64,000 nt of DNA from an uncultured virus (IMG/VR IMGVR_UViG_3300033463_000112) (Duplodnaviria > Heunggongvirae > Uroviricota > Caudoviricetes). The position numbers were made by a program, and so were the translations under genes. The stretch's first letter is position 1. Every line of letters begins with the position of its first letter. The notes below the pieces were generated by a model. The model was not told the origin of the DNA, did not search any database, and saw only the letters and a program-made list of their open reading frames with translations. Shown one piece after another: positions 1 to 60,800 of this stretch. The DNA lies in the IMG/VR virus record IMGVR_UViG_3300033463_000112; one strand, given 5' to 3'.

Positions 1-4
1 CCTG

Positions 5-1219
5 ATGCTCAGGGAAACCGCCAACTCGTATGTTGTGCGCACGACGGGCGTTTACAAACTCCCTCTTGTGTACGGTAACGCTATCAAGGGCGGCCAGACC
101 AATTCTGCCGCTTATACACGTCAGGGCTCAGACTACACGGCTGAATTTGTGAACCACCTCGGCAATCAGATTACCGACCCGTTCATTGAGAAAAACGCCA
201 ACTGTCAGCCCGCTTCCGTTGGCCTGCTCTGGCAGACCGGAACGAACCTGATTACGTCCGTTTCCCTTGTGGAGGGCGGCGACTGTAAGTACATTCAGTT
301 CACCGTTTCCAACGTTCCTACGGAAAACGGCCTCGCGGTCCTGTTCGTGAAAGACTCCGGCGGCCGTATCATGTGGTCGTGGACTATCTGGCTGACCTCC
401 GATACCCTGAACGAGGAAGTATTCAAGAGCGCGGCTCTGGCCGGTGCTGAATACCGCCTTATGCCCGAGAACCTGTTCTCTATCTGGAACGCCGCCCGCA
501 CCTACTGCGTTTGCCCTCATTTCCAGTGGGGACGAAAGGACGCAATGGTTCCCGCTTCGCTCGCTTCCGGTAGCTCGAACATGACCGTTTACGATATTAG
601 CGGCAACGCTATTTCGTGGGCCAGTTCCGCTACGCTCGGCTCGTCTGTTATCGGCGTGTTCGGCACGGACCAAGACGAATCTTCCGACAAGACCGTGGCG
701 AACGCCATTAAGAACCCGGGTATCTTCTTTACTCGCCACAATACGACCACGAACAACTGGAACAACCTGTCGTATTTCTACAACTTCTGGAACGCCCACA
801 TGACGAGCACTTCCGGCCAGCCTGCGGACGACCAAGACAGCGCAGTAAAGACTATCTACGACCCGTGCCCGGTGGGATTCATGCTCCCTGCCGCCCGCGC
901 TTTCACCGGCTTTACCACAACAGGTAACAATAGCTCCGATGCAACGCAGTTCAATGTTGTTGGCTCGTGGGCCTCTGGCTGGAAGTTCATGCGTAAGACC
1001 GGCGATACTCAGGGTAACTACTTCCCCGCTTCCGGCTATCGTGCCCTCGATTCCGGGGCCCTGTCGTACGTTACAGGTAACGGCTACTGTTGGAGTTTTG
1101 CTCCGAACTCTCAGGCCTACGCCCGTCGCCTGTACTTCCATTCAGGCGGCGTTTACCCGTTGTACTACTACGAGCGTTCCGGCGGGTTTGCGGTGCGCCC
1201 TTGCCGAGAATCTAATTAA
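5..1219 (+). CDS. DGR target protein 1, probable tail fibre/receptor-binding protein with C-terminal variable (CLec-like) domain; probably 5'-truncated by the window edge
   Basis: Frame is open from the window edge. The C-terminus (YFPASGYR...GYCWS...GFAVRPCRE) contains VR1, which matches TR except at adenines. The DPCPxGF..P motif is typical of Bacteroidota DGR-target/major-paralogous-domain proteins. Confidence 0.85.
   Translation: MLRETANSYVVRTTGVYKLPLVYGNAIKGGQTNSAAYTRQGSDYTAEFVNHLGNQITDPFIEKNANCQPASVGLLWQTGTNLITSVSLVEGGDCKYIQFTVSNVPTENGLAVLFVKDSGGRIMWSWTIWLTSDTLNEEVFKSAALAGAEYRLMPENLFSIWNAARTYCVCPHFQWGRKDAMVPASLASGSSNMTVYDISGNAISWASSATLGSSVIGVFGTDQDESSDKTVANAIKNPGIFFTRHNTTTNNWNNLSYFYNFWNAHMTSTSGQPADDQDSAVKTIYDPCPVGFMLPAARAFTGFTTTGNNSSDATQFNVVGSWASGWKFMRKTGDTQGNYFPASGYRALDSGALSYVTGNGYCWSFAPNSQAYARRLYFHSGGVYPLYYYERSGGFAVRPCRESN
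1026..1208 (+). repeat. DGR variable repeat VR1
   Basis: 183-bp ungapped match to TR (1989-2171); 21 mismatches by manual alignment, all opposite TR adenines. Confidence 0.97.
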
Positions 1220-1231
1220 ATCCTTTCATCG

Positions 1232-1255
1232 GTCCCGCCCTATTGCGGGCGGGAC
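1232..1255 (+). promoter_or_regulatory. DGR target-recognition hairpin downstream of VR1/IMH
   Basis: GTCCCGCCC-TATTGC-GGGCGGGAC, perfect 9-bp stem, after a 23-nt gap from the end of VR1. Confidence 0.85.
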
Positions 1256-1988: not shown

Positions 1989-2171
1989 CCGCTTCCGGCT
2001 ATCGTGCCAACGATTCCGGGGCCCTGACGAACGTTACAGGTAACGGCAACTATTGGAGTTTTGCTCCGAACTCTCAGACCAACGCCCGTAACCTGAACTT
2101 CAATTCAGGCAACGTTAACCCGTTGAACAACAACGAACGTTCCAACGGGTTTGCGGTGCGCCCTTGCCGAG
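1989..2171 (+). ncRNA. DGR template repeat (TR)
   Basis: Adenine-retaining copy of VR1/VR2 with 14 AAC and 1 AAT codons in the target frame; immediately upstream of the RT. Confidence 0.97.
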
Positions 2172-2209
2172 CATTGAACACACGGCCAGAATACGCCTTT
2201 TAACAGACT

Positions 2210-3391
2210 ATGAGATACACGTTCGAGCAAATACATGAAATGGTTTTCGTGGGCTATCTGAAGGCCCGTGAACATGAACGCTCGTCTTTGGCGGCCATTG
2301 AATTTGAGCTCGAACTGGAAAGGAATATCAACGTGCTTTCGTGGGAGCTTTACCGCCGCACGTGGAACCCACTCCCGCTTGACTTTTTCGTACTGACTTA
2401 TCCTTCCGTCCGCGAGGTCTTTGCACCTCAGTTCCGGGATAGGGTTGTAAGTCACGTGCTTTTCAATATCCTTTCGCCCATTTATGAGCGAATCTTCATC
2501 TATGACTCTTACTCTTGCCGCACCGGTAAGGGGACGCTTTTCGGAATCCAGCGCTTTGAGCATGAGATACGGAGCGTCACTAAGAACTATACGCTTGATG
2601 CCTATTCTCTGAATCTGGATATATCCGGTTATTTCATGTCAATTAACCGCCAGATACTACGGAGCCTAATCTTCAAACGTCTGGAGAAAAACCGCAAGCT
2701 CAGGCCACACGAAATCGACTACAACTTTGCCATGTTCCTTGTTGACACGTTCCTGTCGCGCGACCCGTTGGAAGGTTGCGAGTACCACGGGAACCCGAAC
2801 CTGCGCAAGCTCGTTTTGCCGAATAAGAGCCTTTTCGGCCAGCCCGCCGGTGTTGGCCTCCCGATTGGTGACGTGATTAACCAGCTTAACTCAAATATCT
2901 ATCTGGACCCGTTCGACCAGTTTGTGAAGCGCGAGCTCAAAATCAAGGGCTATATCCGCTACGTGGACGATTCGCGCCAGTTGCATAACAGTTATGACTA
3001 TCTGCTGGAATGTAAAGAGCGCGGCGAACAGTTCCTCCTGAATGAGCTCGGTCTGAAAATCAACCACGCTAAGACGACGATTACCAGCGTGTATGAGCCG
3101 AACGAATTTTTAGGGGCCGTGGTGCTTCCGTTCCAGCGCTGGACTAAGCAAGAAACGGTTGTAAAGTTCAATGCGGCCTTTAAGAGCCTGAACACCAAAA
3201 TCCGTAACGGCGTTCCGATTGATATTGAGCAAGAGCTTAGCTGTATTAACGCCCGGCTCGGGTATATGCAGCACTTTGACGCGCGGCACGTTGTACGACG
3301 GGCCATTGAGAAGTCGGAGTACATAAGGACAATTTACCAGTTTGCACCGAACCAGAAACAAGCAACAATTCTAAATCCCAATACATTATGA
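2210..3391 (+). CDS. DGR reverse transcriptase
   Basis: 393 aa with RT motifs (REVFAPQFRDRVV, SYSCRTGKGT, LDISGYF, GLPIG..Q, YIRYVDD, FLG); no maturase or endonuclease extension; adjacent to TR and avd. Confidence 0.96.
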   Translation: MRYTFEQIHEMVFVGYLKAREHERSSLAAIEFELELERNINVLSWELYRRTWNPLPLDFFVLTYPSVREVFAPQFRDRVVSHVLFNILSPIYERIFIYDSYSCRTGKGTLFGIQRFEHEIRSVTKNYTLDAYSLNLDISGYFMSINRQILRSLIFKRLEKNRKLRPHEIDYNFAMFLVDTFLSRDPLEGCEYHGNPNLRKLVLPNKSLFGQPAGVGLPIGDVINQLNSNIYLDPFDQFVKRELKIKGYIRYVDDSRQLHNSYDYLLECKERGEQFLLNELGLKINHAKTTITSVYEPNEFLGAVVLPFQRWTKQETVVKFNAAFKSLNTKIRNGVPIDIEQELSCINARLGYMQHFDARHVVRRAIEKSEYIRTIYQFAPNQKQATILNPNTL

Positions 3392-5921: not shown

Positions 5922-6035
5922 TTCGTTGGGCCAATCCGCGCCACGGAAACGCAATATACGCTGGGCGTTGAAATCCAACGAAAAAGCCGGGGCTTTAGGG
6001 CCTCGGCTTCCTCTTTCTTTGAGCTATGGGATTTG

Positions 6036-6107
6036 TAGCGGAAGTAGGAATCGAACCTACGGCCTCCGGGTTATGAGCCCGACGAGCTACCTCTGCTCTA
6101 TTCCGCA
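6036..6107 (-). tRNA. tRNA-Met(CAT), initiator-type
   Basis: Cloverleaf with anticodon arm TCGGG-CTCATAA-CCCGG (three consecutive G:C pairs), TTCGATT T-loop and unpaired 1:72. Confidence 0.9.
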
Positions 6108-6114
6108 ATGTTGC

Positions 6115-6198
6115 TGGAGAGGGAAAGAATCGAACCTCCGTCTGCAAGGGGCCTATCCCGGGTACGTCCTTGCCGTGCTACCATTGCACCACCTCCCA
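6115..6198 (-). ncRNA. tRNA-like RNA with 20-nt anticodon loop
   Basis: Acceptor stem, D arm (GTGC-AATGGTA-GCAC) and T arm (GGAGG-TTCGATT-CTTTC) are present, but the GCAAG/CTTGC stem encloses 20 nt instead of 7. Confidence 0.7.
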
Positions 6199-6203
6199 TG
6201 TTG

Positions 6204-6276
6204 TGACTCCGAAGGGGCTCGAACCCTTAACACCCGGGTTAAAAGCCCGGTGCGCTACCAGTTGCGCCACGAAGTC
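6204..6276 (-). tRNA. tRNA-Lys(TTT)
   Basis: Canonical cloverleaf; anticodon arm CCGGG-CTTTTAA-CCCGG. Confidence 0.92.
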
Positions 6277-15548: not shown

Positions 15549-16489
15549 TAGAATAGAGTTGTCTTGAAATAGTCCTGTCCTTTTGCCACAAAGAGCCGCT
15601 CGACGGATTCCGTCGGCCGGTCCGCGTTGAGGGTGGAGTTGATTCTGGTTTCCCAAATGCACTCGAATCTGTCAGACGGCATTTCGTATTCTGAGATATA
15701 GACGGGGACCGTCTGTTTCTCAATCCACGCGAATAGCGCCTCGGAGTCAAAGTCTGACATTTTCTTGGCCCCGTAGCCGTTTGTGTTGGCGTATGGCGGG
15801 TCCAGATAAATGATAGAATCGGGCTGAATCGCAACTTCGTTGTAGGAAAGCTGAGATATTTGTAACCGGGCAACGCGCTCCAGATTTTGTAACCGGGCAA
15901 CGCGCTCCAGATTTTGTAACCGGGCAACGCGCTCCAGATTTTGTAACCGGGCAACCCTTTCTAAATGCTCCAAATGTACGACCCCTTTATTAGCGTGGTC
16001 GGCTTCGTTTTTGGCGTTGATAATATCGTAAGCCGCGAGCCGCCTTTGCTGAACGTCGGGGATAGAATCAATGGGGGTTAGGTCGTATCCGTATTTTTCA
16101 ATCAGGGAATAATCCCGAAAGACTATCGCATAGTGTAGGGCCTTTTTGTAGTTCTCTACTTCACCGGCCGCATAGATATACGTTCTGCAATCCGTACCAA
16201 AGGAAAACAAGAGCTTTACAAAAGCGTCGTCCGTGGCGAAAAACTCCTCCCGTGATACCCACCGCGACTCGTTCCGGTACTTGCCTTCAAGAGCGTTGGC
16301 GAATATTTGCGGGTACGGTTTAATATCGTTGGCAACGACGGTCTGGTACTTCCCGGAGAACATGGCGGCGTGCGTAATAGCGCACCCACCGGCGAACAGG
16401 TCATACAGCGTACCTGCAGGAGGAAGATGCTCCAGTATTTCCTGAGCGATACGGGATTTTGAGCCTTTGTATGGTAATCCGTATTGCAT
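15548..16489 (-). CDS. DNA adenine methyltransferase (D12/Dam-like, alpha class)
   Basis: PYKGSK, DLFAGG, NDI and YLDPPY motifs. Confidence 0.88.
   Translation of the reverse strand: MQYGLPYKGSKSRIAQEILEHLPPAGTLYDLFAGGCAITHAAMFSGKYQTVVANDIKPYPQIFANALEGKYRNESRWVSREEFFATDDAFVKLLFSFGTDCRTYIYAAGEVENYKKALHYAIVFRDYSLIEKYGYDLTPIDSIPDVQQRRLAAYDIINAKNEADHANKGVVHLEHLERVARLQNLERVARLQNLERVARLQNLERVARLQISQLSYNEVAIQPDSIIYLDPPYANTNGYGAKKMSDFDSEALFAWIEKQTVPVYISEYEMPSDRFECIWETRINSTLNADRPTESVERLFVAKGQDYFKTTLF
15859..15955. repeat. 27-bp in-frame tandem repeat (~3.6 copies) in the methyltransferase
   Basis: Unit TTTGTAACCGGGCAACGCGCTCCAGAT; encodes LERVARLQN repeats. Confidence 0.95.
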
Positions 16490-21055: not shown

Positions 21056-21200
21056 AGGTTATAACATTCCACATTTGTACTCTTCGTAGTGGTATCGGTC
21101 CACGGCGATACAGTGGAGGATTTCCCGGGCCTCTTCGGTGTCGGCCTCTTCCTCGTTAATATCGGCCCAATAGGACCGCCGGGCTTTCTCGATAAGCTGT

Positions 21201-21506
21201 TTATCCTTCTCCGTCATTCATCAACTCCTTTAACGCTTCCTGATTCCGGCAATAGTATCCGGCCATGAAAAAGCCGCGTGAAATCCGGTCGAGCATCTTG
21301 TAGATAACGCTGCCCTCAATTTCGCCGATAGCCAGCATAGCGCAAGCGAACCGCTTAGCGCCCTCTTCGCCGATTGACTTATGCGTTGCCTCCATAACGG
21401 ATTCAAAGCAATCGTCGTAGCAATTATTGACGTGCTCAAATACTTCCTCGGTAGCCATATTAGCGTCTAACGCTTTTTTCATGGCATCTTCCAATATCTT
21501 ATCCAT
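21201..21506 (-). CDS. hypothetical protein
   Basis: Start reassigned to ATG 21506 (MDKILEDAMK), just past the VR2 hairpin. Confidence 0.6.
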   Translation of the reverse strand: MDKILEDAMKKALDANMATEEVFEHVNNCYDDCFESVMEATHKSIGEEGAKRFACAMLAIGEIEGSVIYKMLDRISRGFFMAGYYCRNQEALKELMNDGEG

Positions 21507-21519
21507 AGCTTGCGATATA

Positions 21520-21541
21520 CCCCGCCCGAAAAAGGGCGGGG
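21520..21541 (-). promoter_or_regulatory. DGR target-recognition hairpin downstream of VR2
   Basis: CCCCGCCC-6 nt-GGGCGGGG; same core stem, loop length and 23-nt spacing from VR as the VR1 hairpin. Confidence 0.85.
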
Positions 21542-21553
21542 CGTTAAAAGGTT

Positions 21554-22090
21554 CTAAACTAATTCTCGGCAAGGGCGCACCGCAAACCCGTTGGAACGTC
21601 CGTAGTCGTCCAACGGGCTAACGTTGCCTGAATTGAAGTTCAGGCCACGGGCGTGGGTCTGAGAGTTGTAAACCGGCATCGAGGTCCAGTAAGCACCCTC
21701 GTCGCCTACATACTTGGCCTCGCCTTTGTTGTTGGGCTTGTAGCCTGCGGCCCAAAGGAAAATGTGGTTTCCGTTAGGTCCCTCAATGTCGTAGCCCTTG
21801 TTTTTGTCGTCCCACGTCCACTTACAGCACTCGCAAAGCTCGGCCATAGCAGTACCGGACGGGAGGTATTCGCCAAAGGTCTTTAGGGCTGTTTCCCAAT
21901 CATAGTGGCCGGAGGCGTTAGCATCAGCCCACTGGCGGCCGGACGGGAGCCCGAGGTCCACCCACTTACAGGAATCTGGGTCAAATTGGCCCACTTTTTT
22001 CTCACAGAGCTTTTCAAACTGAGCTTTAAGCTCTTTGAGGTTCTTTTCTGCGGCGGTAATCTTTTCCGCAAATTCTTCAATCGGTGTCAT
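21554..22090 (-). CDS. DGR target protein 2 (N-terminal coiled coil plus VDLGLPSG-type domain with variable C-terminus)
   Basis: 178 aa from ATG 22090; WVDLGLPSGRQWA.AN, GPNGNHIFL.AAG and G.YWTS motifs; ends in VR2 (…GFAVRPCRELV). Confidence 0.9.
   Translation of the reverse strand: MTPIEEFAEKITAAEKNLKELKAQFEKLCEKKVGQFDPDSCKWVDLGLPSGRQWADANASGHYDWETALKTFGEYLPSGTAMAELCECCKWTWDDKNKGYDIEGPNGNHIFLWAAGYKPNNKGEAKYVGDEGAYWTSMPVYNSQTHARGLNFNSGNVSPLDDYGRSNGFAVRPCRELV
21565..21667 (-). repeat. DGR variable repeat VR2 (remote target)
   Basis: 103-bp ungapped match to the 3' part of TR (2069-2171); 8 mismatches, all at TR adenines. Confidence 0.95.
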
Positions 22091-22619
22091 TGTTATACGG
22101 TTTAAATTCGTAGAATGGCTTGATAGTACCCTTCTGGGTTCCGCGCGGAATGGCCTCCAGACGTTTGCAACGTTTGGTTTCCGGGGTGTAGTAGGCAATC
22201 AGGGCTTGCTCGTCAATGATATAGCCCTGACGCTGTAAGCGGTTACGCTGGAGTAGTTTGGCTTTAGGCTCAATGCGGAAATGCCGTTTTTGGCGGGGTT
22301 CCAGACCCCAACGAATCCGCATCAGGTCGGTGCGGTTCATTTTGGCCCGTGTGGCCTCGCGTTTCTTGTATGCCTCCGGGGTGTTGATTCTGGCCCCGTT
22401 TCCGCATCGTATAGCCCTTTCCCTGTTAAGATTCGAGATAAACTCTTTCGACTTATGCCAGCCGTGTTTTTCGGCCCGGCTTTTAATCGTCCATTTCGAG
22501 AGCCCTAAAGCCTGAGCTATTTCCTCGTTCGTTTCGTTCGGGTAGTGTTCCTGAATGTAGGTCAGTTGCTCACTCGTCAGGTGTTTGCTTTTGGGCTTTT
22601 TCATCTTTCCTAACCTCAT
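22077..22619 (-). CDS. HTH-containing hypothetical protein
   Basis: YPNETNEEIAQALGLSKWTIKSRA HTH-like segment. Confidence 0.65.
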   Translation of the reverse strand: MRLGKMKKPKSKHLTSEQLTYIQEHYPNETNEEIAQALGLSKWTIKSRAEKHGWHKSKEFISNLNRERAIRCGNGARINTPEAYKKREATRAKMNRTDLMRIRWGLEPRQKRHFRIEPKAKLLQRNRLQRQGYIIDEQALIAYYTPETKRCKRLEAIPRGTQKGTIKPFYEFKPYNNDTD

Positions 22620-22788
22620 TGAACCAACAGGAGCAAATCAACCCCGCGAACAGGCAAATAACCGCAAACGCATCAAAGAGTTGCGCGTTCGTGTCCGTGG
22701 CCTCGGCCAGAGCCTCGGCCCAATTCCATAGGGAGCAAGCGCCCCACGTGAACACGATGCAAAGTAGGATTGCAAATATCTTTTTCAT
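22570..22788 (-). CDS. small membrane protein
   Basis: Two hydrophobic segments; preceded by an AAATCTTTGAG motif. Confidence 0.55.
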   Translation of the reverse strand: MKKIFAILLCIVFTWGACSLWNWAEALAEATDTNAQLFDAFAVICLFAGLICSCWFNEVRKDEKAQKQTPDE

Positions 22789-22943: not shown

Positions 22944-23026
22944 TGGAGCCGGGCACTGGACTCGAACCAGCGACCGCATGGGAATCTGGCCGCCCCATGT
23001 GCTCTGGCCTGCTGAGCTAACCCGGC
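22944..23026 (-). ncRNA. tRNA-like RNA with 13-nt anticodon loop and encoded CCA
   Basis: Fully paired acceptor GCCGGGT/GCCCGGC-T-CCA, D arm GCTC/GAGC and T arm GCTGG-TTCGAGT-CCAGT; the CATGG/CCATG stem encloses GGCGGCCAGATTC. Confidence 0.75.
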
Positions 23027-23032
23027 AATTCG

Positions 23033-23104
23033 CGGACTCGGGAGGGGTCGAACCTCCGACCATTGCGTTAACAGCGCACTGCTCTACCACTGAGCTACGA
23101 ATCC
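23033..23104 (-). tRNA. tRNA-Asn(GTT)
   Basis: Cloverleaf; anticodon loop CTGTTAA; discriminator G. Confidence 0.9.
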
Positions 23105-23175
23105 AAATGCCGGTCTTTCCCGGCTGTCTGGTGTCAAACAATCAAATATGTACGCGACGCATCACTGCGGTATTG

Positions 23176-23259
23176 TGCCCGGGGCGGGAGTCGAACCCGC
23201 ACTCCATAACTGGAAATGGCTCCTTGGGCCATTGCGTCTGCCAGTTTCGCCACCCGGGC
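23176..23259 (-). tRNA. tRNA-Leu-type (long variable arm), anticodon loop CCAAGGA read as AAG
   Basis: GCCCGGG/CCCGGGC-A acceptor, Leu-like D loop, long variable arm; C instead of U at position 33. Confidence 0.75.
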
Positions 23260-24278: not shown

Positions 24279-24816
24279 ATTTTGTAAAATTAGGACCGGC
24301 GGCAGGGAGTCGCACCCCGTCCCGGTCGTTCTATTCACTGACGCATCTATTTGTCGTCGCCCTCAGCGGCGCATGGTAATCGAGTACTTTGCGGCAGTTA
24401 AATATTTTTCCCTATCCGTTATCTTATAACTCGTAGTAGTTGTTAAAGTCGTTTCTTTCGCTTTTCTTGCTTCTATTTTCTGCCAGCGCTACCTCACTGA
24501 TTCGTCCCAAATACCTAACAACGGATTCCCCAAACAAGGTGACGTTTGGAGAGCCGCCTTCTAATCATCGGCGCTACCGGCCCACGCGATTTTCCCTATC
24601 GTGCGAAAATTAAGCTGAACGCACACGGGAGGCCGTTTTCGGTCCGGCCAGACCTTCAGTGTTGTCAAATAACTCAAAGATTTGTTGAAAAAAGTAGGTT
24701 ACTTACTTTGAAATCCCGGAGAAAACCCCTAAATTAGCGGTTGAAACGTATAGGAGGCCGTTTTAAGGTTTCCCCTGGCTTTGTATATCAAAGAACTTAC
24801 TTACTCAATTCGATTG

Positions 24817-24824
24817 CAAAGTTA
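24817..24824 (-). promoter_or_regulatory. Bacteroidota-type -7 element (TAACTTTG) for the leftward early operon
   Basis: TAnnTTTG in the divergent AT-rich region opposite the repressors. Confidence 0.6.
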
Positions 24825-24920
24825 GGAGAAAAAACCGAACTTCCAAAACTTTTTGGAGAAAATCGACAAAATTTTATGGAGAAAGACGAAAAGCCGCCTA
24901 AAAACAAAAATTTTTGAGTT

Positions 24921-25265
24921 ATGGATAGCAACATTCAAGGGCGGCTTCAGATAGCAATAGACGCTATTTGCGCCGGAAACAAATCAGAATTTTGCCGACG
25001 CATCGGAAAGGACGTATCGGCATTGAAAGATATTCTCGGGGAAAAGAAAAGCGCCCCCGGGTATGTTCTTTTGTACTCCATTCTGTCGTCCGATTTGGGT
25101 ATTTCCCCCAACTGGCTTATGCTTGGCGAAGGGCCCATGCTTACGGGTTCCCCGTCCCCCGCGCATCATGGGAACGACGTGCACGATAACAACGTAGTGA
25201 TAATTGGGAATCTTGGCGACCTGAAGGATATTATCGCCGAGGCCATACGGGAGAATAGGGTATGA
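24921..25265 (+). CDS. CI-like HTH repressor
   Basis: GNKSEFCRRIG...ISPNWLMLGEGPML, typical of Bacteroidota phage repressors. Confidence 0.75.
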   Translation: MDSNIQGRLQIAIDAICAGNKSEFCRRIGKDVSALKDILGEKKSAPGYVLLYSILSSDLGISPNWLMLGEGPMLTGSPSPAHHGNDVHDNNVVIIGNLGDLKDIIAEAIRENRV

Positions 25266-25835: not shown

Positions 25836-27002
25836 ATGACACACAGCTTTAACTTCGACAAGGGGAGTATCAGACTGGTTGTATCGCACCGGGGCAAACA
25901 GTATAAGAAAGCCACCGGCCTAACGACGGAGGCCGCCCTCTGGCGGCGGGACGCGAAAACGCTTCGCGCCAAATGCAAAGATGCCCGGATTCTGGCCCGA
26001 CTGCTGGAGATTGACTCGAGGGCCCATGAGAAAGAGGCCGGGGTCGTTTCCGACGATGATTGTTTAAGGGTGATTCAGTATGCGCTGACAGGCGCAATGC
26101 CAGCCGCAAGAGTCGCGGCCGATTTCAAGATACAGAAGGTATCGTTTTGGGAATACTTTGAGGAGTGGGCGAACCGGCCGAGTACGCAGGTGCGCCAAAA
26201 AAAGCTCTGCTACAACAACGTGGCAAAGTTCATGGGGAAAGAATTTACATGGGAGGACGTGGACTCCGCCTTTCATTTCCGACTGGTCCAGAAGATGCGT
26301 GATGCCGGGTTTGGTATTAACTACCAATGGAAAACCGTCAGCCAGCTTAAAACCGTCATGAACGAGGGCCGGAAGCTCAAATATCACAGCAATCTGGAGT
26401 ATCAAGACTTCAAGGCAAAGCGGGAGGACCCCGACACAATCTACCTGACGGGCGAAGAGGTGGAGGCGCTCTGGAACTACCGGCCGAAGGGTGAACTGGA
26501 CCGCAAGGCCCGCGACCTGTTCCTTCTGGGCGTGTATTCGTGCGCACGGTATTCGGACTATTCCCGGCTTACGCTGGATATGATTCAGGACGGCGTGATA
26601 CGCTTTACTCAGGTAAAGACAGCTAATAGCGTGCTGGTTCCCGCCTCCCCTCGTCTGGTTGCTATCCTGAAGCGAAACGGTGGACGCGCCCCCGCGCTCG
26701 CGCAACAGCACCTTAACGAGTGGATTAAAAAGGTCTGCCGGGGTCTTGGGATTACTGAGAAAGTGGACGTGACCTCCAGCGACGGAGTAAAGCATACCAC
26801 CGAGCGCAAAGAAAAATGCGATTTGGTTTCGTCACATACCGCCCGGCGAACGGGTATCACGCTCTTGTATATGACCGGTATTCCGCTACAACAGGTGATG
26901 CTGATTTCCGGCCACAAAGACGAGGATTCGATACGGCACTATCTACGCCTGACAAAGCAGGAAAACGCCAGTATCTTGAAAGATAACCCGTTCTTTAAAT
27001 GA
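25836..27002 (+). CDS. int: tyrosine integrase
   Basis: CARYSD (R), K, SSHTARRT (HxxR), SGH and HY catalytic residues; N-terminal arm-binding/SAM-like region. Confidence 0.93.
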   Translation: MTHSFNFDKGSIRLVVSHRGKQYKKATGLTTEAALWRRDAKTLRAKCKDARILARLLEIDSRAHEKEAGVVSDDDCLRVIQYALTGAMPAARVAADFKIQKVSFWEYFEEWANRPSTQVRQKKLCYNNVAKFMGKEFTWEDVDSAFHFRLVQKMRDAGFGINYQWKTVSQLKTVMNEGRKLKYHSNLEYQDFKAKREDPDTIYLTGEEVEALWNYRPKGELDRKARDLFLLGVYSCARYSDYSRLTLDMIQDGVIRFTQVKTANSVLVPASPRLVAILKRNGGRAPALAQQHLNEWIKKVCRGLGITEKVDVTSSDGVKHTTERKEKCDLVSSHTARRTGITLLYMTGIPLQQVMLISGHKDEDSIRHYLRLTKQENASILKDNPFFK

Positions 27003-27769: not shown

Positions 27770-28594
27770 TTAAGAGAAAAACGCCTTAGCGGCGCTGGAT
27801 AGTTCTGTTTTCTTAGCGCACAGATAACGCTCGGTCATTGCCGTTCCTGAATGGCTCAGGATAGTGGAGATTTCCTGAACAGCCGCTCCACGGGTGTAGA
27901 GGTTCGTAGCACAAGAGCGCCGGGCCGCGTGGGACGACGCAAACTGCCACTTTGGCCCCCTTTCCTCCTTACCGGCTTTCTGGACCACCACCTCGTCGTC
28001 GATTCCGGCCAGCTTACACATTCGACGTACCGCCTCGTTGTAGCACTTGGTCGTAATCGTGATTTCCGGGTGGTCTGATACCCACTTGATACGCTCTTCC
28101 AGTCCCGGTTTCAGGGGGATAGACCCCGCCTTTTTCGTTTTCTGGGCCACGTACCGGAGCACCCCGTCAGTGATATTTTCGACTCTCAGATTCTTTGCGT
28201 CACTGACCCGCAGGCCAGTGAAAGCGCAAATCAGAAACAGGTTTTTGACAAGCTCCTGTTTGCCCGTGTGCGTGGGAGCACTGGCGAACAGCGTAAGCTC
28301 GTCCTCTGTCAGATAGGTGTTCATGGGTCTTACGGCCTTTGCCGTCAGAATCTTGCGCCAGTCCGTCGGGAGTTCGATTTCCTCGCAATAGCGGTTGAAA
28401 AGTGACTTTGCGTAGGCCATGACGGTCTTAACGGTGTTGGGAGCAAGCTCAGAGGTTAGGTGGTCGTGAAACTCATACAGCGCCGAGCGGGTAACGTCTT
28501 TCCAGTCGTAGATACCGACGGCGCTCAGGTGCTTGCGGAGGGTCCCGCCAGCGCCTTTTTGCATCTTGTCGATTGCTTCTTTTAGTGTTCTCAT
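27770..28594 (-). CDS. second tyrosine recombinase lacking an arm-binding domain
   Basis: TGLRVSD, K, SSHAARRS, LSH and TERY motifs; only 274 aa. Confidence 0.9.
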   Translation of the reverse strand: MRTLKEAIDKMQKGAGGTLRKHLSAVGIYDWKDVTRSALYEFHDHLTSELAPNTVKTVMAYAKSLFNRYCEEIELPTDWRKILTAKAVRPMNTYLTEDELTLFASAPTHTGKQELVKNLFLICAFTGLRVSDAKNLRVENITDGVLRYVAQKTKKAGSIPLKPGLEERIKWVSDHPEITITTKCYNEAVRRMCKLAGIDDEVVVQKAGKEERGPKWQFASSHAARRSCATNLYTRGAAVQEISTILSHSGTAMTERYLCAKKTELSSAAKAFFS

Positions 28595-28660
28595 AACTCA
28601 AAGATTTTTAAATTGGCGGGCCGGTGGTCGGTCAGGACCGCCAGCCCGAAATGGGGAAGA

Positions 28661-30249: not shown

Positions 30250-30519
30250 TCAGTACGGGAACGAGCACCCGTTTTCAAACCACTTACAGACGGACTCGGT
30301 GGCCGCGTCCAGCGTCAGACTATCCATGCCTGAGAGGATATTGTTTCCTACCCAGAAGGATACCATGTAGATTTCCTCGTTACTTTCCCGTTTCCACGGG
30401 TCAAGTTCTACCCTTACGGACTCTTGTTTGTCCGGGCCGGTGTACTGGAGCCGTGCTTCGTTTTCGTAGCAGGCGAATAAGATTTGGCGCTTGATTTCGT
30501 TTTTGTTTTCCTCGGTCAT
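30250..30519 (-). CDS. hypothetical protein
   Basis: Starts at the repeated motif. Confidence 0.7.
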   Translation of the reverse strand: MTEENKNEIKRQILFACYENEARLQYTGPDKQESVRVELDPWKRESNEEIYMVSFWVGNNILSGMDSLTLDAATESVCKWFENGCSFPY

Positions 30520-30577
30520 AACTCAAAGATTTAGAGATTTGGCGAAGGCGGGACCGGCCGGGGCCCCGTCCCCGTGA

Positions 30578-31115: not shown

Positions 31116-31514
31116 TTAATCATCAACGAACAGCATAATGTCCTCCACGGAAAAGTCTATATCCTCGTCCGCATCGAGCCCCTCGTCGTAGCAGTAGTCG
31201 TCGATTTGTTCCCGGATTTCGTTTGTAAGGTCCCTATCGGCGCGTTCGGCCAAGCAGCGGTCCCTATCCATTATCCCCAGCGCCCGGAGGGCTCTTTGGT
31301 CGAAATCCTCGATATTCTCTTTGCATCGGAGCCACACAGCCCGCCGGGGCTCGTCCTTTCGTAGAACGTCGAACATTTCCGGGGTCAGCTTTGAAAGGTC
31401 AAGTTTCACGGAGTCGCCAGTATAGTAGCCGGTAATTTCGAGTACCGAGCCGTCAAAGGTAAAGCTCTTGCTGCCGTTAATGATTTTGATTGCGTTTTCG
31501 TAGGTCTGTTTCAT
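31116..31514 (-). CDS. acidic hypothetical protein
   Basis: Starts at the repeated motif; D/E-rich C-terminus. Confidence 0.7.
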   Translation of the reverse strand: MKQTYENAIKIINGSKSFTFDGSVLEITGYYTGDSVKLDLSKLTPEMFDVLRKDEPRRAVWLRCKENIEDFDQRALRALGIMDRDRCLAERADRDLTNEIREQIDDYCYDEGLDADEDIDFSVEDIMLFVDD

Positions 31515-31571
31515 AACTCAAAGATTTAAAGATTTGCAGAGGCGGCTCCGGTCAGGGAACCGCCCCCGTTT

Positions 31572-32528: not shown

Positions 32529-32963
32529 TTAGTCGGTCACTTTTTCGTAATAGGCGCGGCCCTCTTCGGAGAGGTTATTTACGCACCAATTATCGACGGC
32601 CAGCCACGCGGCATTGTACTCGCGGGCGAGGCGGTCAAAGTGCTTATAGGCCCGCACTTTGTTGTGCTTTTTGGCCCGCTCGGCGGCGGTGTAGTGGGCG
32701 AAGAGCTTATGATTCAGGACCAATGCAAGCTCGGTCATGAACTTGTAATTGTCCCGGCCGCCGAGCACGGCGCTTTTGAACGTTTCCCGGATAGCCCTGA
32801 TAGGGTCCTCGCCGAACTGCGGGGCCCTTTCGGCTATTGAGAAGTCCTGCCAGAGCGTCGTCAGCGGCTTGTAGCCATTTTCGGCGGCCTGTTCCCATTT
32901 CGGGAGCTTACTCAGAAACTCGTTAACCTTTTTCATGTCGATTTCGATGAACTTGATTTCCAT
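32529..32963 (-). CDS. hypothetical protein
   Basis: Starts at the motif; TTLWQDFSIAE...TELALVLNHK...YYEKVTD. Confidence 0.7.
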   Translation of the reverse strand: MEIKFIEIDMKKVNEFLSKLPKWEQAAENGYKPLTTLWQDFSIAERAPQFGEDPIRAIRETFKSAVLGGRDNYKFMTELALVLNHKLFAHYTAAERAKKHNKVRAYKHFDRLAREYNAAWLAVDNWCVNNLSEEGRAYYEKVTD

Positions 32964-33031
32964 AACTCAAAGATTTTAGATTGTTTAACATTGGATTGGC
33001 GGGCGGGGTCCCGGTCAGGGGGCCCGGCTCG

Positions 33032-33398: not shown

Positions 33399-34205
33399 TT
33401 AGCAAGATAGCATTTTTACAATTTCCGGCGTTTTCATGCCGCGCAGGTCGTAAAAAGATACTACCTTTTTGAGATTCAGCCCGGCCTCCTTTGCGCACGT
33501 TTGCACATGGTCCCGGTCATTTATCGGGGTTCCATGTCCGATTGTAAAATAGGACGATTTGAGCCCCGGCACGACCTCCACAAAACGCAAAAAATGCCTT
33601 CTCAGCATGGACGGGTTAACGAGGGGATATGCCATTTTTCGCACGTCTATATATTGCCCGGAGTCCTTAATCCTTACAAACATATTGCAGGACTCAGTGC
33701 TGCAGCGGGAACCGAAATAAACGTACAAATTAACCCGGTATCCGTTTTTTTCAAGTCCTAAAACGGCATTTGTCAGGGCGGCGGCCGTTTGTGCAATTTC
33801 GTTTTTATCGACGCTGCAATCGGCGCTCCCGTTGTAACAAAGATTTAGAACTTTGCTATCTTTGTATGTAACTTTTTTCGTTGCATACATGGACCGGGGC
33901 AGGCCTATCAGGGCGGCGGCTACATTTGCGGTCCCGCCGCAAACTGCGGCGTATCGTCTTACTTTGTACCCCTCCCCGGCGGCGTTGATATGCACCCCGG
34001 CGGCGGCCTTCAGGGCGGCGGCGCTTTTTTCGTCCCCGTCCCGCAGCAGCACGTTTGCGGCGGCGTATGATTCAGTCCCGGAGAACTCCTCGCTCCCGGT
34101 CTGAGAACCGAGGCGGCGGCCCCTGAAAACGTTATTTTCCGGCGTGGTATCAAGATAGCGCCGGAGCCCGTCTAAATTTGTGAAACTTTGTACATGGTTT
34201 TTCAT
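33399..34205 (-). CDS. putative VWA-like partner of the MoxR ATPase
   Basis: Adjacent to the AAA ATPase; alternating beta/alpha pattern; no intact MIDAS motif seen. Confidence 0.5.
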   Translation of the reverse strand: MKNHVQSFTNLDGLRRYLDTTPENNVFRGRRLGSQTGSEEFSGTESYAAANVLLRDGDEKSAAALKAAAGVHINAAGEGYKVRRYAAVCGGTANVAAALIGLPRSMYATKKVTYKDSKVLNLCYNGSADCSVDKNEIAQTAAALTNAVLGLEKNGYRVNLYVYFGSRCSTESCNMFVRIKDSGQYIDVRKMAYPLVNPSMLRRHFLRFVEVVPGLKSSYFTIGHGTPINDRDHVQTCAKEAGLNLKKVVSFYDLRGMKTPEIVKMLSC

Positions 34206-34265
34206 AACTCAAAAGATTTTTAATTTGTGCTCCCGGGGTCCGTATCAGGGGCCCCGGGGCTCGTG

Positions 34266-38051: not shown

Positions 38052-39377
38052 TTGACTATTACCCTTCATAATGAGCTTTCGGGGCTTATTACCCCTATGA
38101 TTGACCGCGTGCGCGAGATACGGGATATTCGGCACGGGCGGGACCGTCAGGACTCGCTGGCGGTACTGGAGCGCGACCTTATCCGCAAGTCCTCCCTTTG
38201 CTATATCCGTGGGGATATGCACTACTTCAACGGCCGGGTGTACTCGCTGATTAGCCCTATCACCGTGCGCGACACGCTCTTTAACATAATGATTGATGCC
38301 GGGGCCCCGCCTATGGACGTTCGCAAGGTCGGCGACCTCCCGCTCTCGGTGCTGGCCGAGAAAGAATATCGCCGGGCGAATTTCCTTGCGTTCTCGAACG
38401 GGGTTCTGGACCTTGATACGCTGTACTTCCATGATGGGTTTTCTTCGGAAACGCGCGTAACAGAGTACGTGCCCTATGGGTATAACCCGCAGGCCGTGTG
38501 CCCGGCGTGGGAGGCGTTCTTAGCCGAGGTGCTCCCGGACCCGGATATGCGTAACGTCCTGCAGGAGTTCTTTGGCATGGTCTATCTGGACCGGGAGCAC
38601 TTTTCTGTGGAAAAGTTCGCAATCTTCGTCGGAAAGGGGGCCAACGGCAAGTCGGTTATCTTTGAAGTGATGAAACGGGCGCTCGGGCCGGAACAGGTGA
38701 CAACCCTTGACTCGGCACAGCTTACTGACGAAAAGATGCTCCCCTACGTGAAAGGGGCCCGGCTGAACTTCTCCCCGGACATGGCCCGGCAGAAAGACTT
38801 TACCTCGTCACTAAAGGCCCTTGCTTCCGGTCAGGACGTTACCGGCCGAAAGATTTACGGGGACGCGGAGAAAATCAAATGCCCCCCGCTCTGCTTTGCT
38901 ATGAATGAGCTCCCGGCGTTCAAGGACGGGACGGACGCTTTCTTTAGGCGCTTACTCCTGTTCTCGTTTGAGGTCCAGATACCGCCGCACCGGCAGGACA
39001 AACGGCTCGCCGAGCGTATCTGCAAGACGGACCTCCCGGGCATCTTCAACTGGATAATTCAGGGGCGTTTCAGGCTGATTCGTAACTCCGGGGAGTTTTC
39101 CTTCTGTGAGAAAATGGATACGGACCTGACGCTGATTAAAGGCCGAGTCCAGTCGGGAACCGATTACCCGGTGCGGGCTTTTCTGGAGGGGCGTGGCCTG
39201 TCGGTCTATCCTTCCTACGAAGGCCAGCCTACCGTGCTGATTTCGCGCGACGAAATCTTTAACGGGCTTGGTGGGCGCGTTTCCACGCACGCTATCACCC
39301 GCGAGCTTGTGAACTTTGGCGTACAGACGTACCGGAGCAAAGAAATGAGATACAAGGTTTATGAGAAAGTACGCTAA
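38052..39377 (+). CDS. D5/P4-type SF3 helicase (phage/plasmid primase P4 family C-terminal domain)
   Basis: FSNGVLDL, CPAWEAFL, Walker A GKGANGKS, FAMNELP and FFRRLLLF motifs. Confidence 0.88.
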   Translation: MTITLHNELSGLITPMIDRVREIRDIRHGRDRQDSLAVLERDLIRKSSLCYIRGDMHYFNGRVYSLISPITVRDTLFNIMIDAGAPPMDVRKVGDLPLSVLAEKEYRRANFLAFSNGVLDLDTLYFHDGFSSETRVTEYVPYGYNPQAVCPAWEAFLAEVLPDPDMRNVLQEFFGMVYLDREHFSVEKFAIFVGKGANGKSVIFEVMKRALGPEQVTTLDSAQLTDEKMLPYVKGARLNFSPDMARQKDFTSSLKALASGQDVTGRKIYGDAEKIKCPPLCFAMNELPAFKDGTDAFFRRLLLFSFEVQIPPHRQDKRLAERICKTDLPGIFNWIIQGRFRLIRNSGEFSFCEKMDTDLTLIKGRVQSGTDYPVRAFLEGRGLSVYPSYEGQPTVLISRDEIFNGLGGRVSTHAITRELVNFGVQTYRSKEMRYKVYEKVR

Positions 39378-41680: not shown

Positions 41681-42144
41681 TCGTTTTAATATAACAAAAT
41701 TGTTTCATAGATGAACATTAAAGACTGGCAGAACCGCTTTGCGGAACTGGCCGCAGAGTGCCAGAAAGATTGCTGCGCTCGCATCGAGAGCGTCACGGTC
41801 AGGAATTGGGACGATTCGGGCACTACCCCGGTATGCGACAAGGCGTATTTCAAAGTAGAAATCGACTTCAGATGATACTTCCACCGATGCCAAACGCCGA
41901 GGCCACTGAGAGCCTCCGTAAGCTCATGGCCGCCAATCCGGACCTTACCGTTGCCGACGTGGAACGAAACCCGGAAACTGGCCTGTATGAGCTAAAAAAG
42001 CCTCCCGTTTCCGAGAGGCCAAATCTTTGAGTTATTCGACAACATCACGTCGTCTTTGCCGCAAAGGTGCGAAATTTTCACTTTATTTGCAAAATTCGCT
42101 AAAAAATAGGCGTTTTTGGCAAATAAAATCCGTTATTTCTTGAA

Positions 42145-57874: not shown

Positions 57875-60800
57875 ATGAGATTCGACATTATCCAGAATAA
57901 CGCGCCAATAGCGAACGGAGCGCCTTCTTTCACCGGGACTTACCTTAAACCCGGTGTTTTGACTTTCAGGGAGATTGCTTCGCCGTTCCCGATTCAGTGG
58001 AAGATTGGCGACTACGTGGACTACCCCCGTACCGGGCTCCGGTACTATCTTTACAATATCCCGCAAGTCAAGAAACAGGCAGGTTACAAGACTTACGGGG
58101 GCGCATACTTGTATCAGAACGTACAACTGCACGATGCGTCCTATGAGCTTGAAATCTGCCCGTTCCGGGATTTGGTGCACAATGACAATCTGGTGCATTT
58201 TTCTACCCAAAGCGCCATTTCCGTTTTCGACGACGTGGCCGGTATAGCGGAGCGTATTCAGGCGTGCCTCGATTCGTTCCACCCGGGCGCGTGGAAGATT
58301 CAGCTTGCGACGGCCGAAATGGGCGCTCCGACTGAGCTTCTGGCCCTGATGCAAGAGGAAAGGGAATTTTCCGTTTCCGGCGTTTCTTTGCTCGGTGTTC
58401 TGGATAAGGTCTATGAGATTTGGCCGGAGGTGGGTTGGGTCTATTCGTTTGAGAACGGGCTTAACACTATCACGATTGGCGGCGCGGGCCTTAACGGCGC
58501 GGGCGACCAGTACGAATACGGCAAAGGAAAGGGCCTTGTTTCCCTGACTAAGACGGCGGCCAACACCGAGGAAATCGCTAACCGCCTGTACGTGTACGGT
58601 TCCCAGCGCAATATGCTGGCGAATTGGTATAACACTCAGGAAATCTACGGCGCGGAGTCCGTCGATATTCAAAACCTGATGCTTCCTTCCGACCCCGTTA
58701 CCGGCGAGGCTGTCAAGTACGTTTACGACGGAAAGATATACACGTATTCCGGCAAGATTTACACGTTTGCTGGCCCTACAAGCAACTATAACGGTTGGGG
58801 CCGGACTGAGGGACTCCCGGACCCCGCAAAGGCTTATATCGAAGATTTGGCCTCTATTGCGGCTAAGGGCCTTCGGGCAAAGAGCATCTACTTTGACGGT
58901 TCCGGCGACCTGAAGGAAATCTACCCGACCCTTGAGCGCGTGACAATGGCCGAGGTTCGGGCCGCTTCGCCCGAATATGTCCCGTCGGCTATCTGGTACG
59001 ATTCCGACCGCGTGGACGAGGTGCTTTCCTGTGAGAATCCTGCAGACTACGGCTTAGCCTCCGGGTCCACCGGAAAGGGCGCAGACGTTGTGGAGTACGG
59101 CACGTATAATCACAACGGGGAATACAAGACTATCGCTGTCGGTTCTATCCTGACGACCGGGCTTTTCGAAGGCGAGTTCAACGTGGGTTCCGGTGCGGCC
59201 GAGCTTGTTATCGAGCACCCGTCCGTTGGTATGATTGGCGGCGCTACGAACGTTCAACTCGGATTCCGGTTCTATCTGAAGCGCGGGAGCGCCGACCCGG
59301 TGCGGTTCTACGAAACCCGTATCAATCTGACAAAGGGCGACGCGGGTTCGTATTCCACTGCGGCCGGTAGCGTTACCTGCGACGATACTCCGGTATTCCA
59401 GTCTGGCGATAAGGTTGTAGTTCAAATGTTCCTTGACCTTTGGAACATGGGTACTGATACCAGCGCCACCGAATTGCTTACCAACTGTTCCGGTACTCTT
59501 ACCTACAAGAGCAAGGTATTCCGCACAAAGACGTTCAAGCTGACTCTCAAACAGATTGGCTTTAACATTTCCGAACAGGCCGAGCTCGGTGACGGTATGA
59601 CGCTGGCTATGCGCACCGGTGATTGCGCAGGACGCGAGTTCAAGATTAAGAGCGCCACCTATGCTCAGAACACCGATACGTGGGAACTTGAAATAATCCG
59701 TTCCGAGGACGAGTCGCTCGCTCAGTGGTTCCCGAATCTGGACTACCAGATTGCCACCGGCGACCACTTTGTATTGCTGGATATAGCAATGCCAGAAATG
59801 TATATCAAGATTGCCGAAAAGCGCCTGCTCGCCGCCGGACAGGAAGTACTGGCCGACATGGCGAAAGAGCAGTGGCAATACGTTCCCGACATTGACGCTA
59901 AGTTTATGGTTGAAACCGGTAGGATTATCCTCCCGGCTCAGAACATAACCCTTTGCGACGATATAACCCCGAACGGCTCCCCGGTTAAGATTCTGGTTGA
60001 TTCCGTCACTATCAACGAAAGTGACGCGGCTATTCCGACCTACAAAGTGACGCTGAGGGACAAAAAGAAAAAGTCCTATTCCGACAAGGCCAGCGTTACC
60101 CAGATTTCCTCCCGTCCGGTTGAGGAAACGCCCGCTCAGGCCGAAACCCAGACCTCCGGCGGTTCGTCTGGAGGCGGTTCCGGCGACGGCCACACCCACA
60201 ACAACAAGGAGGTGCTTGACAAGCTCGGCCTTAATGGCCTTTATTTGCTTGCTGACGGCTCGAAAATACAGGCGGGGTACTCTGATACCGCCGGGGACGC
60301 TACGCACGCCACAAACGCCGATGAAGCCTTAGATGCGGCACACGCCGACGCGGCCGACGAAGCGCTCCATGCAGACGACGCAGACCACGCGGACGATGCG
60401 GACCACGCCGACCTTGCAGACCAAGCTACGCTGGCCGACTACGCCACTGACTCCGACAAGTGGGACGGCGAGCACTTTGGCGACTACCTGAATCAGCCTG
60501 TGCGCACTACCGACGACGTTCAGTTTGGCAAGGTAACGACCCCGGAGGTTAAGTCCGCAAACTTTACCACCGGCCCGCTCGGTGTTGGCTACTCGTTGAA
60601 GCAGATTCCGAACGGAAGCGCCACCCTCGAGCTTGACGAAATCACGGTGCGCAAGACCATGAAGGTCTTTGAACTCATTATACAGCAAATTCTGTATCAG
60701 GGAGGCATTGTGATTTACTCTGCCGCCGCGATTGAATGTACCCGCGTGGTGGAACTGGAAACGGGCTACAAATGCTTCTTTGACACGAAAGAGGATAACG

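Follow-up and report, generated by a model that had tools for sequence, protein, structure and literature searches.

The diversity-generating retroelement (DGR) of Bordetella phage BPP-1 comprises Mtd with its variable repeat (VR), avd, the template repeat (TR), and brt; it rewrites template adenines to any base (A-to-N) and serves a single, adjacent tail-fibre target. To our knowledge, functional work on phage DGRs has dealt almost entirely with tail proteins and host range.

Non-adjacent phage DGR targets that appear to be non-structural are already in print (Wu 2018; Benler 2021; Hedzet 2021; Egorov 2024). A preliminary description of the DNA analyzed here had stated, correctly, that such targets occur in gut Bacteroidota phages: in Quimbyvirus ('Quimbyviridae'), ORF 84 is a distal second target on the opposite strand among non-structural genes, which its authors read as non-structural (Benler 2021, PMC8008677). 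The window, by which we mean the whole 64,000-nt stretch analyzed, resembles Quimbyvirus as portrayed in that article in having one DGR with two lectin-fold targets, one of them after tail-fibre genes, in a temperate phage with a Bacteroidota host. However, the neighbors given there for ORF 84 are methyltransferases, a nuclease, and a tRNA ligase, whereas those of the remote target in the window are a helix-turn-helix (HTH) gene and recombination genes. The two are probably different phages; among the phage records compared, those closest to the window TerL are LoVEphage, BI-TP1, and PV4-TP1, at only 32% identity.

The Bacuni phages provide a further case, with a distant second target that their authors consider a putative fimbrial-tip adhesin (Hedzet 2021, PMC8143477). 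In Bacuni F1 (record MT635598.1), the remote VR makes up the final ~35 codons of the gene for Bacuni_F1_00026, a small protein of DUF1566 type encoded 12.5 kb from the TR and between the DNA polymerase A and DNA methyltransferase genes; when we compared it with its own TR, 16 of the 18 mismatches fell on TR adenines. This remote target is reported on the same strand as its cassette, whereas that of the window lies on the opposite strand; the small proteins show no BLASTP similarity (E 0.43), and the RTs are 28% identical. The Bacuni phages are cultured, have the same layout, and would allow a direct test.

More generally, Wu 2018 (NAR, PMC5758913) noted 'many examples' of an adjacent and a non-adjacent target within 50 kb in the same prophage, and reported that TR/VR homology fixes the 5′ boundary, which may vary from one target to another; the portions of that article available to us describe no function or module for the distal targets with which the window could be compared. 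In the Faecalibacterium Toutatisvirus, a second VR lies in a lectin-like gene of the core genome, 17,480 nt from the TR (Egorov 2024, 10.1101/2024.10.15.618418); as presented there, it differs from the window in belonging to DUF6273 rather than DUF8237 and in having a Firmicute host, and its authors favor a receptor-binding role. Two-target cassettes are also discussed in the accessible part of Baykov 2023, while the corresponding part of Benler 2018 on Hankyphage mentions no second target and that of Cornuault 2018 on phage Lagaffe no second VR. We found no literature under the name DUF8237, and the main texts available to us contain no account of a small DUF8237 family recurring in early operons of different phage backbones.

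Here we describe a rumen phage in which one DGR rewrites both a tail-side binding protein and a small lectin-like protein 19 kb away. The second target is real and active, and its layout is one already described in other gut phages; the window contributes a clean and apparently active case in which every cis element is intact, together with relatives for comparison.

The cassette and its remote variable repeat

A complete DGR cassette occupies the left end of the window, with an adjacent target carrying VR1, an Avd-like gene, the TR, and the reverse transcriptase (RT) gene. A second repeat, VR2, forms the 3′ end of a small gene on the other strand, whose product we call the VR2 protein. The features are as follows.

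2-1219, plus strand: adjacent DGR target gene, truncated at the start of the window; 52% identity to the VR2 protein over its C-terminal 63 aa
1026-1211, plus strand: VR1, within the adjacent target gene; found as direct repeat D1, with 88% to TR
1233-1254, plus strand: GC hairpin after VR1, 8-bp stem (1233-1240 / 1247-1254), 6-nt loop
1425-1775, plus strand: predicted Avd-like accessory gene (phrog_3206 'Avd protein of DGR', E 1e-8)
1989-2175, plus strand: TR; the whole serves VR1, and 2069-2175 serves VR2
2210-3391, plus strand: predicted DGR reverse transcriptase (RVT_1, E 7.7e-14, over its cut-off; phrog_1423, E 1.4e-76)
21520-21541, minus strand: GC hairpin after VR2, 8-bp stem (21520-21527 / 21534-21541), 6-nt loop, 20 nt past GAGAAT
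21542-21560, minus strand: spacer between VR2 and the hairpin
21554-22090, minus strand: second DGR target gene, 178 aa, with ATG at 22090 and stop at 21554-21556
21561-21667, minus strand: VR2, variable repeat copying TR 2069-2175, from a repeat search and base-by-base comparison
21701-21703, minus strand: codon 130 (GAC) of the second target gene, 34 nt upstream of the TR-homology boundary
22077-22619, minus strand: HTH gene upstream of the VR2 gene (phrog_323 and phrog_1891 match its N-terminal part)
24817-24847, minus strand: promoter-like site facing left, from a motif scan

The element combines a predicted RT of DGR type, a predicted Avd, and a TR; the Avd-like gene also matches PF05635 (E 3.6e-7) and bAvd (E 0.003), both under their cut-offs. 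The TR is identical in a related IMG/VR contig, L002. The adjacent target has a weak FISUMP match (TIGR02145, E 0.0015, under its cut-off), and up to position 2171 all 24 differences between VR1 and TR are at TR adenines; beyond it, VR1 has C>A at 2172 and T>C at 2175. Diverged direct repeats (58718-58766 / 63413-63461 and 61496-61575 / 63443-63522, 71-78%) within the large genes that precede the adjacent target suggest paralogous tail-fibre-like modules.

The repeat search over the 64-kb window returned an inverted repeat (I2) that pairs 2069-2175 with 21561-21667 over 107 nt at 92% complementarity. Base by base, VR2 differs from the TR at nine places, eight of them TR adenines (2081, 2090, 2091, 2118, 2126, 2129, 2132, and 2136), giving the codon changes AAC to CAC, GGC, AGC, GAC, GAC, and TAC and GAA to GGA; the eight changes and the codon list of the preliminary description were reproduced exactly. 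The ninth, 2172 C>A, is common to both VRs, which read GAGAAT where the TR reads GAGCAT. Adenines make up 28 of the 103 bases of TR 2069-2171, and the chance of all eight differences in this stretch falling on them is ~1.3e-5 (hypergeometric). VR2 accordingly has the pattern that identifies a DGR variable repeat, namely a match to a TR in the same genome with differences at TR adenines. Within 2069-2171, 15 TR sites are altered in VR1 and 8 in VR2; the two have six of these sites in common, with the same base at 2 of the 6, and VR1 and VR2 of the window differ from each other at 15 sites. Their sequences therefore indicate that VR1 and VR2 were written separately, in keeping with the independent diversification first proposed.

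The second repeat also has its own VR-type 3′ end and hairpin, as had been noted, with GAGAAT followed by a spacer and the stem-loop at 21520-21541. The distance from GAGAAT to the hairpin is 20-21 nt at both VRs, and the spacer after VR2 resembles that after VR1, with none after the TR. Aligning the VR1 and VR2 flanks of the window and of three relatives (G003-G005, introduced below), and folding all four phages, we found a GC hairpin (8-11 bp) and the shared spacer after 8 of 8 VRs and 0 of 4 TRs. The stem sequences vary between phages, and in G005 the VR1 and VR2 hairpins differ by one compensated pair, A-T versus G-C. The C/A difference between TR and VR (GAGCAT versus GAGAAT) recurs in G004, G005, G006, and G009 and is not seen in G003. 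These features are consistent with a VR-specific, IMH-like 3′ element followed by a GC hairpin, and a matching arrangement of VR 3′ element and hairpin is known from the BPP-1 target site. In common with BPP-1, the window has A-to-N rewriting, a target of lectin fold whose C-terminal part is the VR, a 3′ element found at VRs and not at the TR, and a GC hairpin following each VR; it adds to these a remote target.

Variation of VR2 between samples

The stretch of the window was contained in runs from bovine, goat, and other animal gut metagenomes belonging to 14 studies; in the RNA run X20, 0.06 of the sampled words were present. We compared runs as Logan contigs, so that the variation seen is between samples and not within one. 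The IMG/VR contig L001 has the gene order of the window, with neighboring proteins that are 98-100% identical and identical VR2 flanks, and yet its VR2 differs at 11 bases, 11 of 11 at TR adenines. A contig from an independent bovine gut run (X3), spanning 21200-22237, has 12 differences from the window, 11 of which lie in VR2 at TR-adenine sites. Across four runs, 13 of 13 variable places in VR2 among those listed map to TR adenines. At the protein level, four members of the 90% cluster of the VR2 protein vary at the same codons, with the first 140 residues nearly invariant.

Because near-identical genomes from different samples carry different alleles at the adenine sites, we infer that VR2 is in use, the diversification being ongoing as judged between samples. 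The preliminary description held that an invariant VR2, or variation away from adenines across populations, would speak against its reading; the contigs vary almost only at TR-adenine sites. Its proposal that VR2 is genuinely a second target, written by the retroelement that also serves VR1, is likewise upheld by the A-only differences from the resident TR and by the variation between populations. VR2 is very probably a working second, non-adjacent target of the single DGR of this phage, served in trans by the cassette.

One polymorphism falls outside this account. Codon 130 is NNC-polymorphic among near-identical relatives, with GAC in the window, AAC in L001 and X3, Ser in the proteins P0001 and P0124, and TCC in contigs of runs X5 and X8. 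The homologous TR codon is AAC; however, because its flanks differ and a 6-nt indel intervenes, the present TR cannot write codon 130. Within the window, a 3-mismatch pattern search for a second TR found only the site itself, and repeat scans found no copy. The active-target model does not explain the variation at codon 130.

A separate observation concerns a contig of run X1, which runs through window positions 2166-2069, then 857 nt, and then the VR1 site (1211-1106). At that site, it carries 106 nt identical to the VR2 of the window, followed by the upstream flank proper to VR1. This contig could be a chimeric path through the assembly graph or a real VR1 allele equal to VR2.

The VR2 protein and its genomic context

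The gene was taken to begin at the ATG at 22090; a TTG-started frame of 214 aa was rejected, as the homologues begin at the ATG. Structure prediction, a check suggested at the outset, yielded a confident lectin-fold domain with an N-terminal helix (AlphaFold2, 58-sequence alignment, pLDDT 94.1). In the model, a helix (residues 3-30) is joined by a short linker to a compact domain (~37-178), and the VR encodes the last strands of that domain (146-153, 156-164, and 168-170). Fold comparison by VIA-align against 48,161 chains returned lectin folds almost exclusively, led by the C-terminal domains of Bd2740 (Z 8.8) and Legionella Lcl (8q4e, Z 8.6). Among DGR targets, the matches were Mtd (1yu0; Z 7.8, rmsd 2.9 over 118 residues), TvpA (2y3c; Z 7.8), and TaqVP (5vf4; Z 6.4), values below 8 that can reflect a common arrangement, in a comparison where nearly all rows are lectin folds. 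Tetranectin, a coiled coil with a lectin domain, aligned to residues 15-178 with Z 7.0 and an rmsd of 6.2. With Foldseek, neither PDB nor BFVD yielded a match at E<=0.001, the weak rows being lectin, FISUMP, and DUF1566 folds, and a complex prediction with three copies of the protein gave a score of 0.00 and a mark of 0.42. As modeled, the VR2 protein is an N-terminal helix followed by a C-type-lectin-fold domain with the VR in its C-terminal part.

Precomputed annotation places PF26707 (DUF8237), a mostly viral family, on P0001 (92% identical) and many other homologues, and through these close relatives the VR2 protein is a probable member of DUF8237; the Pfam version searched with the VR2 protein itself returned no PF26707 match. 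Membership of Lcl_C/DUF1566 (PF07603) was rejected at 18 bits against a cut-off of 34.9 (E 0.0037), the fold alone being similar, and that of FISUMP (TIGR02145) was rejected as the protein had no NCBIfam match. A PHROGs search with the VR2 protein matched no family, structural ones included, PADLOC found nothing in it or in five of its neighbors, and the protein has no signal peptide or membrane segment. A profile of the domain searched against 1.84 billion representatives matched 40,630 proteins at E<=0.001, of which 3,076 reached E<=1e-30; because so many representatives match, we consider the DUF8237-type domain a very common binding module. The top scorers are long proteins with up to 22 domain copies and are probably surface proteins. 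In bacterial assemblies, 425 stretches encode a relative, and the 78 loci retained belong, judging from their titles, almost all to Bacteroidales-type ruminant-gut MAGs.

In the window, the end of the HTH gene overlaps the start of the VR2 gene by 14 nt, and because of this overlap the two are probably co-transcribed. Downstream of the VR2 gene follow two small ORFs, an annealase-like gene, a PD-(D/E)XK exonuclease, SSB, and NinB; upstream, beyond the HTH gene, are three tRNAs (22944-23259), an excisionase-like gene, and the promoter-like site. The tRNAs, SSB, exonuclease, and annealase-like protein listed in the preliminary description were thus all recovered, and the early, recombination-side position it had assigned to the gene was upheld. 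The terminase, portal, and tape-measure genes lie at 43-57 kb. The Bacteroides promoter consensus is TTTG / TAnnTTTG. The site at 24817-24847 (TTTG, 19 nt, TAACTTTG) lies opposite a repressor-like gene (24921-25265), which is followed by an integrase, and is a possible early promoter of the operon containing the VR2 gene.

Several other features of the window were recorded alongside. Five phage tRNA genes form two minus-strand clusters (6035-6276, Met and Lys; 22944-23259, Arg, Asn, and Leu). A motif of ~16 nt (ATAACTCAAAGATTT and its complement) recurs on both strands, immediately ahead of the start codon in many small genes (24660-24684, 24902-24938, 28572-28618, 30491-30541, 31486-31536, 32953-32982, 34183-34229, and 42020-42044); accessory genes probably share it as a promoter or leader. 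Within 3 kb there are two tyrosine-recombinase genes (25836-27002, plus strand; 27770-28594, minus strand). They are followed by ~14 kb (28-42 kb) of small genes pointing in either direction, among them a primase-like gene at 38052-39377, and the phage may here carry a second mobile element or a moron region. Between two DNA methyltransferase genes, 15859-15966 holds three to four tandem copies of a 27-nt unit, an array resembling iterons and possibly a replication origin.

Relatives were sought at several levels. A DNA search of 21400-22700 against the phage collection gave no match, and a protein search gave one weak match (MT839707.1, 36% identical over 52% of the query); in a metagenome contig scan with the single VR2 protein, 140 stretches matched and no relative was among them. 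In IMG/VR, a profile scan recovered 30 loci with a relative of the VR2 protein. Of ten underlying records searched, five contain an RT (G003, G004, G005, G006, and G009, with G004 and G009 near-duplicates), including 4 of the 4 that are >=90% complete; these RTs are 52-58% identical to that of the window. All five records have a VR1-Avd-TR-RT cassette and a small homologue ~10-34 kb away, in coordinates of the record, on either strand, and in 5 of 5 the 3′ 110-120 nt of the remote homologue match the TR of the same record with A-biased mismatches (at TR adenines in 12 of 14 for G006 and 14 of 15 for G009). The survey of related phages proposed earlier has therefore yielded five further records with a remote target. 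In two Bacteroidales MAG contigs (L039 and L040), a distance of 3.4-5.7 kb separates the RT from the small gene that follows it. G006 has tandem paralogues (L004 9260-9937 and 9962-10420), of which the downstream copy matches the TR and the upstream one matches it at 73%, with mismatches at all bases.

We examined 17 close-homologue loci by hand, namely 14 IMG/VR loci at E<=4e-23 and L038-L040. In 16 of them, the gene is on the early, replication, or lysogeny-switch side, and none of the 17 has it inside a recognizable head or tail block. The layout of L001 is that of the window. In six loci (L003, L005, L008, L012, L013, and L014), the gene directly follows a DnaB-type helicase at the end of a recombination-replication operon; in five (L004, L006, L007, L009, and L011, the last judged by its likeness to L009), it follows a primase-like gene of ~1,020-1,040 aa; in L015, it follows a homologue of the HTH gene; and in L038-L040, it lies a few genes from a repressor-like gene, in an operon diverging from the repressor. 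The remaining locus, the Mu-like L010, is ambiguous, with the gene between transposition genes and an oppositely oriented head block and an upstream neighbor that matches the PHROG 'tail completion or Neck1' (E 3e-21).

Proposed role of the second target

By analogy with BPP-1, the RT and Avd would copy TR RNA into cDNA, misreading adenines, and the mutated cDNA would then replace a variable repeat. Recognition of the site would depend on the GC-rich 3′ end of the VR, on the VR-type bases at which it departs from the TR, and on the downstream hairpin, all of which VR2 has, and the 5′ limit of rewriting at VR2 would be the start of TR homology (2069). Because VR2 has its own elements and its own homology start, the last 35 codons of the small gene could be rewritten independently of VR1. 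The product would be a small soluble protein whose variable surface, in the model, is the C-terminal beta-hairpin of the lectin-fold domain, and its gene would be expressed within a leftward operon running from the repressor side into the recombination genes. The retrohoming chemistry is taken over from BPP-1 in this scheme, and early timing, non-virion location, and ligand are those that we infer for the window.

VR2 might alternatively be a fossil target, once written and no longer serviced, yet within the TR it departs from the resident template only at A sites, it has kept its spacer and hairpin, and near-identical genomes elsewhere carry different A-site alleles between identical flanks; we regard this as extremely improbable. 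It is also improbable, if a little less so, that VR2 alleles arise mainly by exchange with VR1, through gene conversion between the 107-nt inverted repeats, rather than by direct retrohoming. The X1 contig, with 106 nt of the window's VR2 at the VR1 site, is what such exchange would produce, but it may be an assembly-graph chimera, and VR1 and VR2 of the window differ at the 15 sites noted above, VR2 has recognition elements of its own, and L002 repeats the window's VR1 exactly.

As to the function of the protein, we lean toward an early-made, evolvable binder that is not part of the tail, a reading drawn from gene context and favored because the gene sits in early operons across unrelated backbones. 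Its ligand might be a host factor that varies and that the protein encounters once the phage has entered the cell, or during lysis. The preliminary description had likewise proposed an intracellular early protein, perhaps an evolvable binder of host defense or regulatory proteins. The principal competitor, to which we give a lower but substantial probability, is that the small protein is a virion component, a tail-tip or decoration adhesin encoded off the structural block, so that the DGR diversifies two adsorption proteins. The lectin-fold C-terminus, which over 63 aa is 52% identical to that of the adjacent target, fits that alternative, as do the fold matches to the receptor-binding Mtd and TvpA (both Z 7.8) and an N-terminal helix that could serve attachment or oligomerization, for which tetranectin offers a parallel at Z 7.0 but with an rmsd of 6.2. 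The best-scoring domain relatives are, moreover, long and probably surface-exposed proteins with up to 22 repeats, and at L010 the neighbor carries the label 'tail completion or Neck1', with head genes just downstream on the other strand. Virion proteins likewise lack signal peptides. The non-virion reading rests on gene position and on the absence of a signal peptide, the latter being equally true of virion proteins. Against a virion adhesin, 16 of the 17 loci, representing no fewer than three different phage backbones, have the gene in an early, replication, or switch-side operon and oriented like the other genes there; in the window, the HTH gene overlaps its start and recombination genes follow it; and the protein matched no structural PHROG family. 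Published interpretations of remote targets, in the parts of those articles that we could consult, favor adhesion (Hedzet 2021, PMC8143477; Egorov 2024, 10.1101/2024.10.15.618418).

The recurrence of a second target in early operons of varied backbones, in ruminant and human gut Bacteroidales, suggests a further step of infection at which targeted hypermutation is used. A bolder and rather unlikely generalization is that the small DUF8237 proteins form a conserved class of early, retroelement-evolvable binders acting inside the cell or at lysis, in counter-defense or host takeover, and acquired independently by at least three unrelated replication strategies (helicase/recombinase, primase, and Mu-like transposition). 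If so, one DGR would evolve both adsorption and a post-entry step. A weaker possibility, hinted at by the X1 contig, is that the two VRs sometimes exchange or share alleles, in which case the second site could store binding specificities.
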